Shown here piece after piece: positions 15,409 through 23,033 of a DNA stretch of 64,000 nt; within the stretch, counting starts at the first letter, position 1, and each line of letters begins with the position of its first letter. The notes below the pieces were generated by a model. The model was given only the letters and a program-made list of their open reading frames with translations, was not told the DNA's origin and ran no database searches. The translations under genes were made by a program, and so were the position numbers. Source of the DNA: Promethearchaeati archaeon (GTDB taxonomy: Archaea; Asgardarchaeota; Heimdallarchaeia; JABLTI01); the NCBI GenBank assembly GCA_013166835.1, contig JABLTI010000001.1:22852-86851 (forward strand). The letters run 5' to 3'.

Positions 15409-16275
15409 ATGGCAAATGTAAAAATCGTTGCTGATTCCACTTGTGATCTTCCGATTTCAGTTATAAAAAATCTTGACATCGAAATCATCCCAGCAAATGT
15501 AATTTTTGACGATCAAATATTCTCTCATTATGAGATTAATAATGATGAATTTTATCAGCGATTAGCAAAAGGTGAAATGCCCTCAACTGGTGTTCCTGCA
15601 CCGAAGGTATTCAAAACAGCCTTTGATAATGCCCTAAAATCTTCTGATGAAGCAATTGTTTTCACCTTATCTAAGAAACTCTCTGCAATGTTTCAAACTG
15701 CTACATTGGTTGTTAAAAATTTCTTTGATGAAAGAGTTACTATTGTTGATTCAGAAACAGTCACTTTGGAAATGGGATTAATAACCTATCTTGCAGCAAA
15801 ACGGGCTAAAGAGGGAGCTACAAAAGAAGAAATATTACAAACCATAAATGATTTTCTTATTCCAAATTCCCAATTAATTGGTGTAGTTGATACCTTAAAG
15901 TTCTTAAAAAGAAGTGGGAGAATTAGCACAATTTCTTGGTTGATTGGTTCTGTTTTGTCTATAAAACCAATTGTCCATATTGAGGATGGATTAATAAAAT
16001 CACCAGGAAAAGTTCGGGGTAAAGAACATGCATTAGAAATCCTCGAGACAGTAGCTCAAAAAATCGTTGAGAATAAAAAATCCGATTCAATTATCGTAGG
16101 ACACAGTCACGATCTAGTAAGAGCACTTGAATTTGAGAAAATAATTAAAGAATTACCAGATGCCCCATCTGATATTCTGATAGGAGAGATAGGTCCAGTA
16201 GTAGGAACTCATCTTGGTCCAGGAGCAATTGGTTTTGCATGGATAGGTGATTTTGCAGAAGAATGGATAAAATGA
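15409..16275 (+). CDS. DegV/FakB family fatty-acid-binding protein
   Basis: ADSTCDL, PSTGVP, LSKKLS, SGRI, THLGPG. Confidence 0.93.
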   Translation: MANVKIVADSTCDLPISVIKNLDIEIIPANVIFDDQIFSHYEINNDEFYQRLAKGEMPSTGVPAPKVFKTAFDNALKSSDEAIVFTLSKKLSAMFQTATLVVKNFFDERVTIVDSETVTLEMGLITYLAAKRAKEGATKEEILQTINDFLIPNSQLIGVVDTLKFLKRSGRISTISWLIGSVLSIKPIVHIEDGLIKSPGKVRGKEHALEILETVAQKIVENKKSDSIIVGHSHDLVRALEFEKIIKELPDAPSDILIGEIGPVVGTHLGPGAIGFAWIGDFAEEWIK

Positions 16276-16278
16276 AGT

Positions 16279-17043
16279 TCAATCACAAGTAGCTAAGTTT
16301 TCATCCACTTTTTTAGACTTAACAAAGAAACCTAAGAGCATAAACAACATTCCTATTCCTACGAATATGAATTCGATTCCGTTTAAAATTTGAGCATTAT
16401 CCCAAGTACTAGCTAGAACATTTGATAATATATTTGGAATTAGTGATCCTATACTAAGGCTGAATCCAGTTAAGAAATATTTCAAACAAAGCCTAATGTT
16501 TTCATCTTGTGTGTGTTTTAGAGCTCGTGAGAAATAAACGAAGATTATTACAATCATAGTTATACAAATGGGATAAAATATCCCCATGAAGAAAGGAGAA
16601 GTTTGGCTATCAGCAGTTTCTCCACCACCAGATTTTATGGAATACCAAAGATTAGAGCTTGTATTTGTTAATCCAAATAAAAGCCCACCAATTGTTAATA
16701 CCACAAGAATTACTGGTACAAGAATTTCCCATCTAAAAGCAAAATGAGTCCCAAAATTGAATGCTATCGAGCTAAGCATCAGTAATGCTATACCACAAAC
16801 TAAAGATAAGGCATAGATTTTTGTGAGAACTAGCATAGCAGTAGGATCACTTTGCGAATAAACAAAAGCTCCAAGAGGTAAAAAGACATAACCTATTGCT
16901 AGGAAGAAGAAACTACTTGCGAACAACCAATTTATCTTTTCAGTTGGACATCTCTTCAAAACAATTGTAGTAATGATTACTAGCATTGTGAAACTAGAAC
17001 CTCCTACAACTAAACTGAGATAATTTATCCAACTTAATACCAT
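16279..17043 (-). CDS. Stand-alone 7-TM membrane protein, putative sensor
   Basis: Seven hydrophobic segments and no soluble output domain. Confidence 0.55.
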   Translation of the reverse strand: MVLSWINYLSLVVGGSSFTMLVIITTIVLKRCPTEKINWLFASSFFFLAIGYVFLPLGAFVYSQSDPTAMLVLTKIYALSLVCGIALLMLSSIAFNFGTHFAFRWEILVPVILVVLTIGGLLFGLTNTSSNLWYSIKSGGGETADSQTSPFFMGIFYPICITMIVIIFVYFSRALKHTQDENIRLCLKYFLTGFSLSIGSLIPNILSNVLASTWDNAQILNGIEFIFVGIGMLFMLLGFFVKSKKVDENLATCD

Positions 17044-17130
17044 TTGAATCCCAGAATTTTAACTCTCGAGAAAAAAAGAACACAAACGTATTTAAAAATT
17101 CTTTCGAGTAGGTATGCTTTTGATTATAGC

Positions 17131-17523
17131 TCATTTAGTCCCAAGTTCTACTTCAATATTCTTAACATAGATGTCTCTTCCACCACTGATTTTAGTGTTA
17201 TTGGACTTACATTTTGGGCACTCGAAGATATTCACTAAATCAACTACGAAATGATCCACATCCTTCTTCTTTGCATCAACAGATCCTTTATAGCCGCAGT
17301 CTTTACAATCAATTTCCCCTTTCTGTGCTTCAATTATCAAATCTGCTTTTTCTGCTAAGGTACCTTCTGCTGCAATTTCAAACGCAAACTTTAACTGTTC
17401 GGTGTTTAGCATAGAGAAATCACCAACAACTAATTCCACTTTCTTAATTCTAGTTGCATTATGTTCTTTTGCAACAGCGGTAATCGTCTCTATAACACCA
17501 ACCGCAGTTGAATATTCGTGCAA
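17131..17523 (-). CDS. hypA: Hydrogenase maturation nickel chaperone HypA
   Basis: MHE N-terminus, two CxxC motifs, SGGRD; GAGGT upstream of the TTG. Confidence 0.95.
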   Translation of the reverse strand: MHEYSTAVGVIETITAVAKEHNATRIKKVELVVGDFSMLNTEQLKFAFEIAAEGTLAEKADLIIEAQKGEIDCKDCGYKGSVDAKKKDVDHFVVDLVNIFECPKCKSNNTKISGGRDIYVKNIEVELGTK

Positions 17524-17730
17524 TGATAGTACCTCAAGATTTTCTTAACAACTAACACAACTACCTTTTATTGATAAATTTGTGTATTCAACTTGTGAAG
17601 TGGAGAAATCTTTTCAAATTAAAAACTATAGTAACAAATCCCCAATAGAAAAGAAAAGTAATAATATATAAGGGAGAAAATAACCTTTAAATTACCATCC
17701 ACCTCAAAAGGAAGCAGCGAGGAAGAAAAA

Positions 17731-18132
17731 TTGTCTAAAAGTAGTAAAGCTAAGAAAGGAAAAACCGCAGAAAGAAGAAATCTCAGAGTAATCTATCCAG
17801 AGTATTTCGATAAAAACCTAACTTGGCGAATGGGTCGAAGAGTATCAACAAAATTAGCATTTGATGCCCCAGAGCTACAGAGGGTTGCTCTAGCAGCCAA
17901 AAAAGCGGGGTACGAAGTATTCCTTGATAAAGAGAAACATTACTCGAAAACTTGGTATGAGCAAAAGGGAAGATTACTAATAACAAAAGATGGTTCCAAA
18001 GAGGAACAAATACGCGAAATAGCTCGAAACCTTTCAAAAGTGAATGTACCAAAACCAAAGGCAACTAAGAAACCTGTAGATAAGAAGAAGAAAGTAAAGA
18101 AAGGTAGTGTCTATAGACAGAAATCTCGCTAA
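17731..18132 (+). CDS. srp19: Signal recognition particle protein SRP19
   Basis: VIYPEYFD...GRRVS, KHYSKTW...GR. Confidence 0.92.
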   Translation: MSKSSKAKKGKTAERRNLRVIYPEYFDKNLTWRMGRRVSTKLAFDAPELQRVALAAKKAGYEVFLDKEKHYSKTWYEQKGRLLITKDGSKEEQIREIARNLSKVNVPKPKATKKPVDKKKKVKKGSVYRQKSR

Positions 18133-18174
18133 TTAATTATTGTTTTTCAAGAAACTATACCGGAAGTGTAACCT

Positions 18175-18480
18175 CTGAAGAAACTTGGTAAAGTGACAAC
18201 GGTTAACAAGAAAGGAACTTTCTTAGTTAGATCTACAAAACCACATAGAATAGGTATACAAGTTGTCAACCAAGAAATAAAGAGGTTAGGAAAAGTGGTA
18301 GATGTTATCGGTCCAGCAACAGCCCCATATATTGTAATCAATACTAGGGACGCTCAAGCACAAACTAAGAAGGGAGACGTTGTGTATTTATTGGATAAAC
18401 CCCCACAAAAACCAAAACGTTCTCAACAGAACAGATCCGGAAAACCACGTTATTCTAAAAAATCTTACTCGAAAAAATAA
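18175..18480 (+). CDS. gar1: H/ACA RNP subunit Gar1, probable CTG start
   Basis: (M)KKLGKV N-terminus and LGKVVDVIGPATAPY signature; in-frame TAA at 18169 limits the start. Confidence 0.85.
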   Translation: MKKLGKVTTVNKKGTFLVRSTKPHRIGIQVVNQEIKRLGKVVDVIGPATAPYIVINTRDAQAQTKKGDVVYLLDKPPQKPKRSQQNRSGKPRYSKKSYSKK

Positions 18481-18574
18481 AAAGACCTGAAAATTGCTTC
18501 TAGAAACCATCTCGAGTAACAACTTGTGACCTCTAAATGAGTCTCTTAGTTGAGTTCTAAAAAAGTGAATCCGC

Positions 18575-18582
18575 TTTATATA
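18575..18582 (+). promoter_or_regulatory. TATA box for the two-peptide unit
   Basis: TTTATATA about 50 nt upstream of the ATG at 18632. Confidence 0.6.
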
Positions 18583-18631
18583 TACCCTAGAGGATAGTAT
18601 AATTAAGAACAAAACTCGGAGAAGAAAAAAA

Positions 18632-18718
18632 ATGAACAGAACAAAACAAAAAATTAGAGAACAAGTCAGAAAGGAAATCGAACAAACCAGATTTAAGACA
18701 CTCTTAATTGGTTGTTAA
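18632..18718 (+). CDS. 28-aa basic peptide MNRTKQKIREQVRKEIEQTRFKTLLIGC
   Basis: ATG...TAA with GGAGA upstream; similar to the next peptide. Confidence 0.6.
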   Translation: MNRTKQKIREQVRKEIEQTRFKTLLIGC

Positions 18719-18753
18719 AAAAAATCTGAAGAAAAATTTGGAGGACACTAAAA

Positions 18754-18840
18754 ATGTTGAAAAGAAAAGAACTTCAAAAGAAAATCAAGCAAGATAGAGA
18801 AAAAGCAAGAATGAAATATCTCTTAATGACTGGAAGATAA
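18754..18840 (+). CDS. 28-aa basic peptide MLKRKELQKKIKQDREKARMKYLLMTGR
   Basis: ATG...TAA with GGAGGA upstream; similar to the preceding peptide. Confidence 0.65.
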   Translation: MLKRKELQKKIKQDREKARMKYLLMTGR

Positions 18841-18844
18841 TCGA

Positions 18845-18872
18845 TCTGCAATACTATCAAATAGCTTGCAGA
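18845..18872 (+). terminator. 3' hairpin after the peptide genes
   Basis: TCTGCAA...CTAT-CAA-ATAG...TTGCAGA inverted repeat between convergent genes. Confidence 0.45.
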
Positions 18873-18919
18873 ATCATCTTTCATACCAATATTGTTAATT
18901 TTAATATCGTTATTGTTAT

Positions 18920-20041
18920 TCAAAAATCGATTTTATAAACTACCTTCTCACGAAAACCTGTTGTTACAGTTATGTAGCCACTTAATAATTGATTCAATTC
19001 CTTATCCCCTGTGTCAACAAGAAAAGGTCGACCGTTTAGAGAGTTAATTTTCTGTTTAGTCGCTACAACAAGAATGTTATCTTTTCCTACTTCCCTAATT
19101 ACTTCTGAACTTATTTGCTGGTTACCTCTGCCAAACAAGTATCCTTGCCCTCCAATAGGTGTGATTATTAGTTTAGCTTTCTTCCCTCTTATGTGTTCAA
19201 GCAATCCTTTTTCGTTTAAATCCTTACCAATGAGTTTCTTTCCATGGATAAGGTCAACCCCTAGAAGGGTATAATCTAGCTTCAGTTTCTCCATGATCGG
19301 TCTCGTAGTTGTTCCTGGTCCAATAATATAGTAAAAATTCTCATCCATGTTTTCTATAATAACCTCAGCAATTGCTTCTTGAGCATAATTTTCGTTTCCT
19401 AAACTCCCGAATTTCATACCTTGGACATGTCTTTTCTCAAAAGGAATTTTCAAGTACCCATAAAGCTTAGCTGAAACAAAACCCGCTCTGAAAGCCTCTT
19501 CATCAATATCCATAACTTCTGCTTCTTTTATCTCTGTCACTTTTCCTTGGAGATAAAGAGCAGCAAGATCTCCCCCTCTCATTGGATTACAAGCGTAGAC
19601 AGCTGAATGCATTTTAACTCCCGTAGGGATACCTAAAACAACAAGGTCCTTGCCAACTGCACGATAGATATCTCTAGCAGTGCCATCTCCTCCAGCAAAA
19701 AGTAAAAGATCGATTTTTAATTCACTGAGGTCTTTTGCAGCTTGTTGAGTATCAGTTGCGGTAGTGTTTCCTTCTTCAATGGAACCAATCACTTTCGGTT
19801 TAAAGCCACAGGACTTTGCAGCATTTTCACCCATATTTCCAGGATAGGTGATTAATTCGATTTCATTTTTGAGGGAAGTAAGTCTTTCAATAGCTTCAAT
19901 TGCTCGTTTCGGTGATTCCAATTTTGCCCCAAGAGTCTTAGCTTGTTCCAAAATAGCTTGACCATCAGTTCCTTTTAGGCCAACTTTGCCACCCATGCCA
20001 GCAATAGGATTAACTATTAAACCTAGTTTCCTCAATTCCAA
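18920..20041 (-). CDS. ATP-NAD/AcoX kinase-like protein
   Basis: [36 protein letters not shown]. Confidence 0.9.
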
Positions 20042-20058
20042 TCATCTTTTTAACAGAC

Positions 20059-21609
20059 TTACTTTTTATTCTTCTTCAGATAGGCCCTCCACGTAATAGC
20101 CCATCTTGCAGGATCATCTAAAGGTTCATGGTCATACTTATGAACAACACTTCTATGAGGAGCATTCTTAACTATCTCTGGATTCTCATATGCTTCTTTT
20201 ACCACTTGTTTCAGTCCTTCGATGTATTCATCGATCTCTTCTTTCGAGTAAGACTCTGTGGGTTCAAGAGTGAAAGGTTGAGGAACAATAAAGGGGTGAT
20301 GAGAAGACCACATATGAAATCCGAAATCAGCCATACGATACGTGACATCTTCAGTAGTTATTCCAGTGTCTTTGTAAAGTTGTTCCCAGCTGTAACGAAC
20401 TTGTTCTATACGATGTCTACCTTTCGCGTAAGGAGCGCTTGCCCCGCGAATTTCCAGCACTTTTTTCAAAAGATAATTGTTGTTAAGAACAGCAATGCGA
20501 GAAGCTTCAACTAAACCTTCACGACCTAAACTCATAATCCAAGAATAAGCCTTCAAAACAGCAGGAATAACACCATGAAAACCTCGAACTTTACCAATGC
20601 TCTTTGGAAGATCATGTTTGAAATAATACTTCTTTCCATCAAATTCTACTAAAGGAACAGGTAAATAATCAATAAATTCCTTAGTTGCTCCGAGAGCTCC
20701 GGAAGCTGGTCCTCCGCAGCCATGTGGTGAAGAAAAGGTTTTGTGTAGATTAAAGAAACAGAGATCGAATCCCGCTTCTTTCGCTCTTGTAATTCCCAGT
20801 AAACCATTAGCATTTGCTTGGTCATACCCGCAAATCCCACCTGCTTCGTGAACAATTTTTGTAAATTCTTTGATTTGCGGATTAAAGATTCCAGTATCTT
20901 CTGGATTAGTAATTAGTAATCCCGCAGTTCTTTCTGAAACTACTTTTTTCAGGGCTTCGACATCTGGCAATCCATCTTCGTTAGGATAGATACTGATGAC
21001 TTTATACCCTTTTATATCCGGTGCAGCCGCATCAGAAGGATGTGAGAACATAGTGGTAATAATTTCATCTCGTTTTTCTCCTTCTCCTCTAGATTCATGG
21101 TAAGCTTGGATTATGGAAACTATTGTAAAAATTGCTTGACTCCCACTAGCTGGTTGAACTGTAAATTTATCCATCCCTGAGATTTCTCTCAGAAACAAGT
21201 CTAGTTTATACATTATTTCTAGGGTGCCTTGTGCTGTGCTTTCATCTTGCGATGGATGAAGTTCAGTGAATTTTGGAGAAGTGGCAAATTTCTCATTGAT
21301 TTTTGGGCTGTATTTCATTGTGCACGTTCCTTGTCCAATATCTACATTCAAGTCAGCACCAAGAGTTTGCTGGGACATACGAAGATAATGTTTGAGAACA
21401 CGCATTTGAGATATCTCTGGGAGATGCGGAGGTTGTTTTCTTCTCATTGATTCGGGGATTTTAGAAAATCCATCACCGACAATTTCCTCTATTTCTTTCT
21501 CAATCTTAGGAAATAGTATACCTCGTTCTCCTTTGTTACTTAATTCATAAATAACAGGTTCATCCCATTTTGCTTGATGAAAATTTCTTACTCCGATTTT
21601 TTTGGTCAT
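20059..21609 (-). CDS. gcvPB: Glycine dehydrogenase (P protein) subunit 2-like
   Basis: GTCTMKYSP, ITNPED, NLHKTF with PLP lysine, EPTES. Confidence 0.9.
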   Translation of the reverse strand: MTKKIGVRNFHQAKWDEPVIYELSNKGERGILFPKIEKEIEEIVGDGFSKIPESMRRKQPPHLPEISQMRVLKHYLRMSQQTLGADLNVDIGQGTCTMKYSPKINEKFATSPKFTELHPSQDESTAQGTLEIMYKLDLFLREISGMDKFTVQPASGSQAIFTIVSIIQAYHESRGEGEKRDEIITTMFSHPSDAAAPDIKGYKVISIYPNEDGLPDVEALKKVVSERTAGLLITNPEDTGIFNPQIKEFTKIVHEAGGICGYDQANANGLLGITRAKEAGFDLCFFNLHKTFSSPHGCGGPASGALGATKEFIDYLPVPLVEFDGKKYYFKHDLPKSIGKVRGFHGVIPAVLKAYSWIMSLGREGLVEASRIAVLNNNYLLKKVLEIRGASAPYAKGRHRIEQVRYSWEQLYKDTGITTEDVTYRMADFGFHMWSSHHPFIVPQPFTLEPTESYSKEEIDEYIEGLKQVVKEAYENPEIVKNAPHRSVVHKYDHEPLDDPARWAITWRAYLKKNKK

Positions 21610-21635: not shown

Positions 21636-23033
21636 TTAGTTCAAGCACTCATCCAAAGCTTGGACAAGTCGATCTATGTCCTCCTTTGTGTGCACTTCAG
21701 TTACACAATAGACTGCGCATTTCCCTAATTCAGAAAATTCTGCAGAGACATCTTTACCGCCGAAAATACCTTTCTTAAGCAAAGATTTGTTCACATTTTC
21801 TACCGTTTTACCGGAACCACTGAAATCCACGACAAATTCTTTGAAGTGAGGTGATTTCTGGAAAGGAATTTTTACTCCTTTTATTTCGGAGAGTTTCTTT
21901 ATTGCATACTGTGATTTTTGCAGAATTAGTTGGCCTAATTCTTGTAATCCTTGTGGTCCAACCAAAGCCAAGTAGACACCAGCAGTAATACCCCACAATG
22001 CTGCAGCTGTCCCTACATATTCTTTACCTTCTTCTCGACCATGAAAAGAAGTTCGATCATAAAACACATCACCAAAACCCCATTCGCCTTCAACAGCAGT
22101 TTTAGTAACACCAAATAACCTCGAAGGATACTCACTTACGAATTTTTCATCGTCATGAGTGCCGATAAATCCTGCGAGCCCCCCACCAAATTGCATGTGA
22201 ATACCAAAAGCTTGAACATCACCACATACAATATCCGCTCCGTAATTGCTTGGAGGAGCTAAAACACTCAAGGACATAGGATCTAATCCTACAATGCTTA
22301 AAGCACCGTGTTTATGAGCGATCTCTGAAATAATTTTGCCTTGATCATCTATACATCCTAAGTACGAGGGATTTTCAAAGTAAATACAAGCAGTTTTTGA
22401 AGATATTTTTGTTTTCAAGTCTTCAAGATCAAGTCGTCCAGTTTTCAAATTGAAGTCAACAAATTTTACCTCTACAACAGGTTTGCAATAGTTTTGAATT
22501 ATTTTGAGTCTATCTGGAGAAATAGATTTAGAAATTAATACTTCAGAACGACCGGTTATTCTTCCTGCCATGCGTATTGAAGTACTTGCAGCTTGCCCCC
22601 AATCAAAAGTTGGGATATTTACGACATCCATTTCTAAAAGATCACCCATCATGCTTGCGTACTCAAAACATGCTTGAAATCTTCCGTGATCTTCGTATGG
22701 TTCACCAGCGTACGCAGTCAAAAATTCCGATCGTTGATTGATTTCATCACAAATTGCTGGTACGTAATGTTGCCAACAATCGCCACCCAAAAAACTAAGA
22801 TTTTCCTGACAAGTCTTATTTTTCGCTAGGATTCCTTCCACATGTTTTTTGAGACCAAATTCCGAAGGAAAAGGATCGGGTAATTTCAGTTCACCTTTGA
22901 ACCTTAGATTCTCAGGAATGTCCTCGTAGAGTTCTTCTATATCCTTTACTCCAATTTCTTTCATCATTTTTGCCTTAACTTCTGGAACAGAATTCGGAAT
23001 GTAAGGATGAATGAGTTTCGTTTCTTTAACCAT
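21636..23033 (-). CDS. gcvPA: Glycine dehydrogenase (P protein) subunit 1-like
   Basis: HPYIPNS, RSEFLTAY, GADIVCGD, CVTE. Confidence 0.9.
   Translation of the reverse strand: MVKETKLIHPYIPNSVPEVKAKMMKEIGVKDIEELYEDIPENLRFKGELKLPDPFPSEFGLKKHVEGILAKNKTCQENLSFLGGDCWQHYVPAICDEINQRSEFLTAYAGEPYEDHGRFQACFEYASMMGDLLEMDVVNIPTFDWGQAASTSIRMAGRITGRSEVLISKSISPDRLKIIQNYCKPVVEVKFVDFNLKTGRLDLEDLKTKISSKTACIYFENPSYLGCIDDQGKIISEIAHKHGALSIVGLDPMSLSVLAPPSNYGADIVCGDVQAFGIHMQFGGGLAGFIGTHDDEKFVSEYPSRLFGVTKTAVEGEWGFGDVFYDRTSFHGREEGKEYVGTAAALWGITAGVYLALVGPQGLQELGQLILQKSQYAIKKLSEIKGVKIPFQKSPHFKEFVVDFSGSGKTVENVNKSLLKKGIFGGKDVSAEFSELGKCAVYCVTEVHTKEDIDRLVQALDECLN

Follow-up and report, generated by a model that had tools for sequence, protein, structure and literature searches.

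A multicopy, genus-restricted family of unannotated micropeptide genes in Heimdallarchaeia and its promoter link to bactofilin-domain genes

The described systems closest to the genes reported here are of several kinds. In bacteria, short terminal peptides tether or modulate bactofilins. PH1932 (1ULY/2CWE) and Phr (2P4W) are regulators of archaea, of the ArsR-type winged-helix kind, that dimerise through a helical domain; we know of no solved regulator of this type that controls or binds micropeptides. In Rgg/SHP and other RRNPP pairs of Gram-positive bacteria, a short open reading frame (ORF) lies beside a regulator with a TPR-type peptide-binding domain; MgrB, a membrane protein, is a small feedback protein acting on PhoQ; and TnaC, SecM and the fungal arginine attenuator peptide are ribosome-arrest leader peptides. 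The locus described here has points of likeness to, and of difference from, all of these. It lies in a stretch of 64,000 nucleotides (nt; hereinafter, the window), positions 22,852 to 86,851 of contig JABLTI010000001.1 in GenBank assembly GCA_013166835.1 of a Promethearchaeati archaeon (GTDB lineage Archaea; Asgardarchaeota; Heimdallarchaeia; JABLTI01), and contains two consecutive ORFs of 28 amino acids (aa). To judge from the sequence, these are genuine protein-coding genes, a bicistronic operon of paralogous micropeptides that belong to a previously unannotated, multicopy, genus-restricted family.

The original prediction, made from the letters of the window alone, had placed here a TATA box, two 87-nt ORFs each preceded by a Shine-Dalgarno (SD) motif, and a hairpin, and had interpreted the ORFs as a diverged, duplicated micropeptide family. 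The TATA box and both SD-ORF units exist as described, at 18575-18840 (Table 1). The hairpin is present as well, but it is weak (z-score of -1.5; 14 of 200 shuffled sequences fold equally well) and is retained in just the three closest species (G000, G007 and G003) of a six-species alignment; a consensus scan for a terminator at the locus found no such site. The gap between the two genes is 35 nt, so they are probably co-transcribed, and the predicted transcript contains the two peptides only. Operon structure, transcript ends, translation and interactions are predicted properties throughout, and all the genomes compared are metagenome bins; the assembly that includes the window (G000) comprises 3.56 Mb in 260 contigs (designated C, with a number, below) and is 85% complete.

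Searches of this genome with each of the two peptides as a single query found 8 and 5 further places, respectively. The genome contains at least 12 clear paralogs, spread over 10 contigs and 27-33 aa in length when read to their stops, and two weak additional matches (C175 and C72); the copies conform to the pattern ..K.IK.Q[IV]KK[DE].E.[AT]R[MI][KR][FM]AL..G[RA], and ORF1 is one residue short before the Gly compared with the family. ORF1 and ORF2 match a profile of the 12 own-genome copies, which contained ORF1 and ORF2 themselves, with E values of 8e-14 and 1.2e-12, and a 43-row profile with 9e-11 and 2.9e-10. In a direct BLASTP comparison the two give no alignment at E<=100, and neither recovers the other in the single-sequence genome searches. 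Because both belong to the family profile and single-sequence searches provide intermediates, they are related via these intermediates; the relatedness claimed for the two ORFs thus holds through the family, but not by direct alignment. Copies often come as tandem pairs with a spacing of 120-175 nt (17 pairs among the profile matches), so the operon of two in the window is a recurrent layout. The own-genome copies, 14 with the two weak ones counted, stand without exception on the plus strand, on 11 contigs (C253, C59, C143, C95, C21, C123, C247, C37, C138, C175 and C72). Long ORFs of this assembly show no general strand bias (483,508 vs 459,873 codons), and AT skew is absent; the other genomes of the genus have family copies on both strands.

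The coding status of the family was assessed on 55 distinct coding sequences (CDS) from this genome and from loci of its relatives. Frame and length are maintained across the set, and a single premature stop was seen: one copy, encountered twice, as L030 (G002:C258) and L057, stops early at TAA after ..NKTRM, as a pseudogene or a shortened variant might. GGAG, GGTG or GAGG stands 5-10 nt before nearly all of the 57 starts listed. In 18 disjoint close pairs, the Nei-Gojobori method counts 48.7 differences at 284 synonymous sites and 57.3 at 1300 non-synonymous ones; the resulting ratio of non-synonymous to synonymous differences per site (pN/pS) is 0.26, the synonymous excess has a binomial p of 2e-11, and the differences at codon positions 1/2/3 number 30/23/53. 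A non-coding explanation would assign the conservation to the promoter, the leader or a small RNA and treat the ORFs as incidental; it draws on the conservation of the promoter and 5' leader, which is at least as strong as that of the ORFs, and on the A-rich, low-complexity sequence. Against it stand the pN/pS ratio and third-position excess, the frame and length kept in the 55 CDS save for the one premature stop, and the SD-like motifs before the starts. Rfam, moreover, has no match in 18480-18880 and no gathering-score match in 17000-20500, and the covariation term of RNAalifold on the six orthologs is only -0.99, on which grounds conserved RNA was rejected as the main explanation. We find incidental ORFs barely credible and consider it close to certain that this is a coding micropeptide family.

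The original prediction had named a lack of homologous short ORFs (sORFs) in relatives as what would refute it, and such sORFs are clearly there: all 10 other genomes of the genus carry the family, with 2-15 matches each. Beyond the genus, the signal fades. The sole other genus of the taxonomic family gives one weak match (E of 0.009), the other families of the class give none in 29 genomes, and a phylum-wide search with the 43-row profile at E<=1e-3 found none in 290 Asgard genomes outside the genus, these genomes being samples, many of them incomplete. A HMMER search against 1.84 billion protein cluster representatives returned 55 at E<=1e-3, which range from 28 to 86 aa and have the C-terminal block in common; no larger protein that contains the motif as a domain was found in the genome or in this library.

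The order SRP19-Gar1-ORF1-ORF2 is retained in five genomes (G007, G003, G005, G008 and G010), with SRP19 identity of 93-69% and Gar1 identity of 88-50%; in G005, 25 of the 28 residues of ORF2 are identical at a Gar1 identity of 63%. One weak ORF2-like frame follows SRP19-Gar1 in G009 and none in G006; the G002 contig ends at the locus, and SRP19 was not found in G004 and G001. The position after srp19-gar1, to which the original prediction had drawn attention, is thus a property of this ortholog pair, in five other species, but not of the family. In the six-species alignment, conservation sets in sharply at the upstream palindrome and stops at the ORF2 stop codon, with unalignable flanks. Other paralog loci are likewise syntenic, across 1-7 genomes, which indicates stable chromosomal genes, not scattered insertions.

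This synteny bears on the possibility that the peptides are toxin-like, selfish or conflict elements silenced by a neighboring repressor, which would explain both the expansion of the family and its restriction to one genus. The family is indeed multicopy, lineage-restricted and fast-diverging, and repressor-like regulators with operators over the promoter adjoin several copies (see below). However, every checked paralog locus is syntenic across species rather than patchy, no integrase or transposase is among the listed neighbors of the own copies, the peptides have no PADLOC or PHROGs match, and they lack the hydrophobic membrane-spanning helix of type I toxins. Among IMG/VR contigs there are 0 relatives of the regulator alignment and 0 matches to a degenerate motif of the C-terminal block. 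A viral or mobile origin was rejected, with nothing found in IMG/VR, PHROGs or PADLOC, and we consider a toxin-like or selfish role improbable.

The charged helix with a hydrophobic tail that had been foreseen for the two peptides is borne out by the family. AlphaFold, run with the family alignment, models one helix over residues 3-30 with a predicted local distance difference test (pLDDT) score of 91.9. The net charge of the 55 peptides (27-34 aa) has a median of +6 and a range of +3 to +10. The front is variable and rich in Lys, Gln and Glu, and the end is conserved as [AT]-R-[MI]-[KR]-[FM]-A-L-x-T-G-x, with Arg in 55, Gly in 54, Leu in 48 and Ala in 41 of the 55 sequences; Trp is absent and Pro and Cys are scarce (Cys in 5 of 55). 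The peptides contain no signal sequence or hydrophobic stretch, and no hydrophobic run exceeds about 8 residues.

No family in Pfam, NCBIfam, PHROG or PADLOC matches the peptides; at E<=1, the only Pfam match to either ORF is PaaX_M (0.087), for ORF1. The ESM Atlas holds the peptide sequence letter for letter, without a usable look-alike, and a full-text literature search turned up no work on Asgard micropeptides or small ORFs, the possibility of a mention in a supplement aside. In these four profile libraries and the literature searched, then, we could find no described relative of the family. In kind, it would belong with regulator-gated prokaryotic small proteins, among which its copy number, three operator classes and tie to bactofilin-domain genes in an Asgard lineage are unusual. 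MgrB is alike in being a tiny protein under a dedicated regulator and thought to bind a larger protein, but it is unrelated to the family peptides in sequence or fold.

The original prediction had named RNA or ribosome binding first among its options. Given their Lys-rich helices, the peptides could bind RNA, ribosomes or DNA by charge, in the manner of tiny basic ribosomal proteins or nucleoid peptides, in which case the links to regulators and bactofilins would reflect shared regulation only. The median net charge and the single helix fit such a role, and the window pair stands beside two ribonucleoprotein (RNP) genes, encoding SRP19 and a Gar1-like protein, a position kept in 5 species; eL41, also strongly basic and helical with about 25-30 residues, offers a ribosomal precedent in form. 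Yet it is the hydrophobic C-terminal block, not the basic front, that is best conserved, the RNP neighbors occur at one of about ten paralog loci, and no ribosomal-protein family matches at E<=1. A dozen differently regulated paralogs per genome, confined to a single genus and carrying a conserved hydrophobic block, also set the family apart from eL41 and make a core ribosomal part a poor fit. We therefore judge nucleic-acid or ribosome binding to be unlikely.

The copies are preceded by promoters of three classes, each with its own operator-like palindrome. Class I, to which the window operon belongs, consists of GTCAC[AG]-N3-[TC]GTGAC, CCTC, two TGAGTC repeats, GTGAATCCGCTTTATATA and the leader AAGAACAAAACTCGGAGAAGAAAAAAA-ATG; in at least 15 copies from different species, 105-117 nt separate the palindrome from the ATG, repeats of the TGAGTCT/TGAGTTC type are present in every class I promoter printed, and the window operator is invariant save for its spacer in the six-species alignment. 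In class II, TTCTCA-N2-7-TGAGAA adjoins the TATA box and is followed by a TGAGAAT half-site, and class III has CTTACA-N6-TGTAAG or TTGTAAT..ATTACAA. A shared, operator-bearing promoter, like the multicopy nature of the family and the bactofilin and winged-helix links described below, was no part of the original prediction, although these three traits are the most telling about function.

An nhmmer search with a class I profile found 6 strong sites (E<=2e-15) and 3 weaker ones in the genome of the window; the window promoter itself (C253:41363-41476, corresponding to 18512-18625) matches with an E of 3e-24. The strong sites precede the window pair, the pair on C59, a 32-aa sORF on C249, a peptide gene followed by a 387-aa gene on C123, and two tandem genes on C72. 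The Pfam family Bactofilin (PF04519) matches the C123 gene (6.3e-13) and one of the C72 genes (1.9e-7), the other C72 gene being a 35-36% paralog; the genome has no large bactofilin-domain gene other than these three, and two smaller weak matches lie elsewhere. All 10 printed loci that carry the C72-type bactofilin-like gene retain the class I promoter; the 10 include the own genome, and two genomes account for two loci or fragments each. For the C123-type paralog, both the class I promoter and a micropeptide ORF ahead of the gene were present in all 9 genomes where it was found, the micropeptide being recognized by profile in 7 and by eye, as a diverged ORF among 4 printed loci, in 2. The apparent co-regulation of the window operon with genes of bactofilin-domain, polymer-forming proteins, together with probable co-transcription in one paralog, seems to be the strongest functional lead for this operon. 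Compared with the bacterial bactofilins, the peptide here is a separate gene, not a polymer tail, and most paralogs, the window pair included, are not next to a bactofilin gene.

Several further observations concern the class I promoter. At C249:227-419 it drives a 32-aa ORF, MNGKININNVKNQVRKEIQNPKNLPIRIINAY, with a family-like front and without the C-terminal block. Two of the three weaker sites precede paralogous 490-aa genes with Beta-lactamase and DUF3471 domains (C245:20835-22411, minus strand, and C97:3321-4891, plus strand; nhmmer E of 2.5e-8 and 7e-4, Pfam 1.9e-52 and 5.7e-59, respectively). A fused peptide-bactofilin, considered for the C72 N-terminus (..KNRARMKF..), was rejected, the motif not being kept in orthologs; rows with apparent in-frame stops in the comparison of C72-type genes lie 5' of the start and were likewise discounted. 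In each of three independent metagenome runs, DNA contigs end within 18550-18640 and depth jumps 4- to 8-fold there, as a repeated element would lead one to expect; the recurrence of the class I promoter with its 5' leader probably causes assemblies of the genus to fragment.

The second recurrent association of the family is with regulators. An ArsR-type winged-helix gene adjoins 7 of the 12 own copies, in three arrangements: divergent, with regulators of about 210 aa (C143, twice, C21 and C247) or 219 aa (C95); ahead of the peptide gene, with a 143-aa regulator (C37); and behind it, with a 368-aa regulator (C138), an arrangement kept in 5 other genomes. The whole 3.56-Mb genome has 21 HTH_5 matches only, and four of the neighboring regulators match HTH_5 in Pfam with E values from 3.9e-6 to 1.9e-9. 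The 210-aa regulator family has 12 members, and the five best-scoring ones are those linked to peptides. In a search that started from the regulators, a family peptide was found upstream on the opposite strand at 11 of 44 loci at E<=1e-6, a number that rises to 14 at E<=0.005; the 11 fall without exception within the 16 loci whose regulators are 40% or more identical, and at the 28 wider loci (24-40% identity, other Asgard lineages) a crude filter, which may miss ORFs, found no basic sORF upstream. At L052, L053 and L054 (Heimdallarchaeota), 250-380 nt 5' of distant relatives of the regulator, there are two different tandem sORFs of 34-36 aa; one such sORF, MKIHTRKDLEKQIRKNYERAHITETVSMAQVSTRWR, has a family-like front and a different end.

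The AlphaFold model of the regulator (pLDDT 91.9) combines a winged helix with a helical bundle and lacks a TPR-type domain; Foldseek places PH1932 first (1ULY/2CWE; E of 8.6e-10, template modelling (TM) score of 0.59-0.63), followed by PadR and the heat-shock regulator Phr. At the divergent peptide promoters, palindromic operators lie directly against the TATA box. The regulators appear, on sequence and model, to possess the features of the ArsR/PH1932/Phr group: a winged helix-turn-helix (HTH), a C-terminal helical domain and a palindromic operator. The window operon differs in having another operator and no such neighbor. A complex predicted for two regulator copies with one cognate 32-aa peptide scored 0.01, a value that speaks neither for nor against binding.

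The class II palindrome occurs at 31 genome sites (for example, C21:3452, C63:7879, C48:2651, C69:1445 and C143:2355) compared to about 1.6 expected from shuffles, which hints that PH1932-like regulators govern a larger class II regulon. Several of these sites adjoin TATA boxes of other genes, including those for two ATC_hydrolase-like proteins and a TM2-like membrane protein. No common theme of this regulon emerged: Pfam scans of 8 further neighbors or targets gave ATC_hydrolase, DegV, alpha/beta hydrolase or nothing. At the regulator loci, predicted class II transcripts contain up to three consecutive micropeptide ORFs, with two extra ones before the family peptide at C143:8149-8546 (L047), C21:25293-25701 (L046) and L057. 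Extra ORF A, of 33 aa and ending in ..KVKIILTMFYSDGLI, is conserved among C143, C21 and L057, with a similar end (YYVDGLI) in an ORF at C95; extra ORF B, of 23-24 aa, contains ..KGQIKKELTP... These ORFs possibly represent further unannotated families.

Several paralogs recall Rgg/SHP in form: a short ORF, whose product has a basic front and a conserved C-terminal part, points away from an HTH regulator gene. The peptides could, accordingly, be exported signals or precursors of ribosomally synthesized and post-translationally modified peptides (RiPPs) that are sensed or processed with the neighboring regulator; a signal and a modified-peptide precursor had been among the options of the original prediction. 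Neither is supported. The peptides are hydrophilic, modeled as one charged helix and devoid of an export signal, the regulator has an ArsR/PH1932-like fold instead of a TPR-type peptide-binding domain, and among the neighbors examined there is no recurrent transporter, protease, radical-SAM enzyme or cyclase, nor, in the Pfam scans, any RiPP-modifying enzyme or recognition protein; the rarity of Cys points the same way. As far as the data show, the family works differently from the Rgg/SHP group, of which it is not a member, and we rate an exported or modified peptide as very improbable.

With 27-34 codons and conservation concentrated in the last 10 residues, some of them invariant, the ORFs resemble ribosome-arrest leaders, and they might act in cis on a downstream gene of the same transcript. 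Four own copies (C123, C138, C95 and C143:8460) have, at least in form, the requisite same-strand gene 26-120 nt downstream, one with an intervening hairpin. Others do not fit: at five own loci, which hold 7 of the 12 copies and include the window pair, no same-strand gene follows and the next gene is convergent, leaving nothing for window-type copies to control in cis. Tandem peptide pairs are also common, and the window transcript would consist of peptides alone. Control of a downstream gene in cis therefore has little probability.

We propose instead that the micropeptides of the family are translated, are gated by regulators and have a common partner, on which they act in trans; for this package as a whole, we put the chances at slightly better than even. 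Dimeric regulators would gate each promoter class, the class I regulon included, and the peptides would be small proteins that partner or modulate others in trans: the hydrophobic block that they share at the C-terminus would dock on a common macromolecular partner, and the variable basic front would perhaps touch membrane, nucleic acid or an acidic surface. Among candidate partners, the co-regulated bactofilin-like polymer would come first for the class I copies, and the adjacent ArsR/PH1932-like winged-helix regulator for other paralogs; that the partner is a protein rather than a nucleic acid is possible, if doubtful. A more speculative version, for which we see a slim chance, is a combinatorial micropeptide layer on the Asgard cytoskeleton, in which a dozen 28-residue helices, each with its own operator and regulator in three promoter classes, would couple different signals to cell-shape remodelling, the common C-terminal R-x-K-F-A-L-x-T-G blocks converging on the bactofilin-like polymers that share regulation and transcripts with class I copies, so as to cap, bundle or membrane-anchor filaments.

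Several points weigh against the proposal of regulator-gated micropeptides acting in trans. The functional links are guilt by association throughout (shared promoter, operon or adjacency); the window pair has no adjoining bactofilin or regulator gene, and its operator carries one mismatch and has a postulated regulator. Limitation to one genus may indicate a young, fast-evolving or dispensable role. Helical amphipathicity is no higher than in shuffled sequences (mean z of -0.26; 0 of 55 exceed 1.64), a result for which an amphipathic antimicrobial-type helix was also rejected. The seeds of the profile searches were chosen by us, and independent support comes from the single-sequence matches, synteny and the regulator-first search. 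Translation of both ORFs is deduced from sequence, and the expression data are sparse: one metatranscriptome run provided four 151-nt contigs identical or near-identical to the stretch, located in SRP19, at the SRP19/Gar1 junction, in ORF2 with its 3' flank (18758-18908) and in the NAD kinase gene. These contigs are compatible with transcription, short of proof; they are of read length, come from one metatranscriptome, lie evenly over neighboring genes on both strands and give neither strand nor transcript ends, DNA carry-over into the RNA library is possible, and the parts of the stretch left uncovered in RNA run X20 carry no evidential weight.

Table 1. Features of the micropeptide locus and its neighborhood (window coordinates)
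Feature	Position	Strand	Basis or remark
Operator-like palindrome GTAACAACTTGTGAC	18516..18530	+	1 mismatch to GTCACA-N3-TGTGAC; ~116 nt 5' of ATG1
Direct repeats TGAGTCT / TGAGTTC	18538..18557	+	Between operator and TATA box; blocks conserved in six-species alignment
Transcription factor B recognition element (BRE)-like AAAAAGTGAATCCGC and TATA box TTTATATATA	18560..18584 (TATA 18575-18584)	+	Sequence, six-species alignment
SD-like GGAG	18618..18621	+	10 nt before ATG1; within conserved 5' leader AAGAACAAAACTCGGAGAAGAAAAAAA
Putative micropeptide gene 1 (ORF1), 28 aa + stop, 87 nt, MNRTKQKIREQVRKEIEQTRFKTLLIGC, end ...EQTRFKTLLIGC	18632..18718	+	ORF, family profile, orthologs
SD-like GGAGG of gene 2	18740..18744	+	9 nt before ATG2
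Putative micropeptide gene 2 (ORF2), 28 aa + stop, 87 nt, MLKRKELQKKIKQDREKARMKYLLMTGR, end ...KARMKYLLMTGR	18754..18840	+	ORF, family profile, orthologs
Weak hairpin 3' of gene 2	18843..18875	+	-11.5 kcal/mol; not a conserved part
SRP19 gene, 5' of pair	17731-18132		Pfam 1.4e-17
Gar1-like ORF, 5' of pair	18193-18480		Pfam 1.4e-4, under curated cut-off
NAD kinase gene, 3' of pair, convergent			Pfam scan of neighbors
DegV-like paralog	15409-16275	+	
Multi-pass membrane protein	16279-17043	-	
HypA	17131-17523	-	

Within ORF1, a 9-pair stem (18681-18716) pairs the codons for ..EQTR.. with those for ..GC-stop; it is present in 6 of 6 syntenic orthologs, with two pairs altered on both sides (alignment columns 300-338), and could either follow from codon conservation or form a structure that affects ORF2 translation. 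Further upstream in the window, the DegV-like paralog is 45% identical (BLASTP) to the Pfam-confirmed DegV gene adjoining the C21 peptide locus; the membrane protein next to it has 254 aa and no family assignment, and HypA is identified with a Pfam E of 4.5e-32.

Genes of 87 nt are under the usual length limit of gene callers, so the family is invisible in ordinary annotation, even though it is among the larger paralog families of the genome (12 copies or more, and 55 public clusters) and is conserved, under selection and, to judge from its promoters, tightly regulated. It offers testable handles: the GTCACA-N3-TGTGAC operator and its regulon, the TTCTCA-N-TGAGAA operator and its candidate regulators, and the 10-residue putative docking block. 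Heimdallarchaeota are the archaeal group nearest to eukaryotes, and their regulation and cytoskeleton-like systems are of special interest. Should the peptides not modulate polymers or regulators, they would still constitute a well-documented new small-protein family; should they do so, Asgard archaea would provide a first instance of a control layer built on micropeptides.

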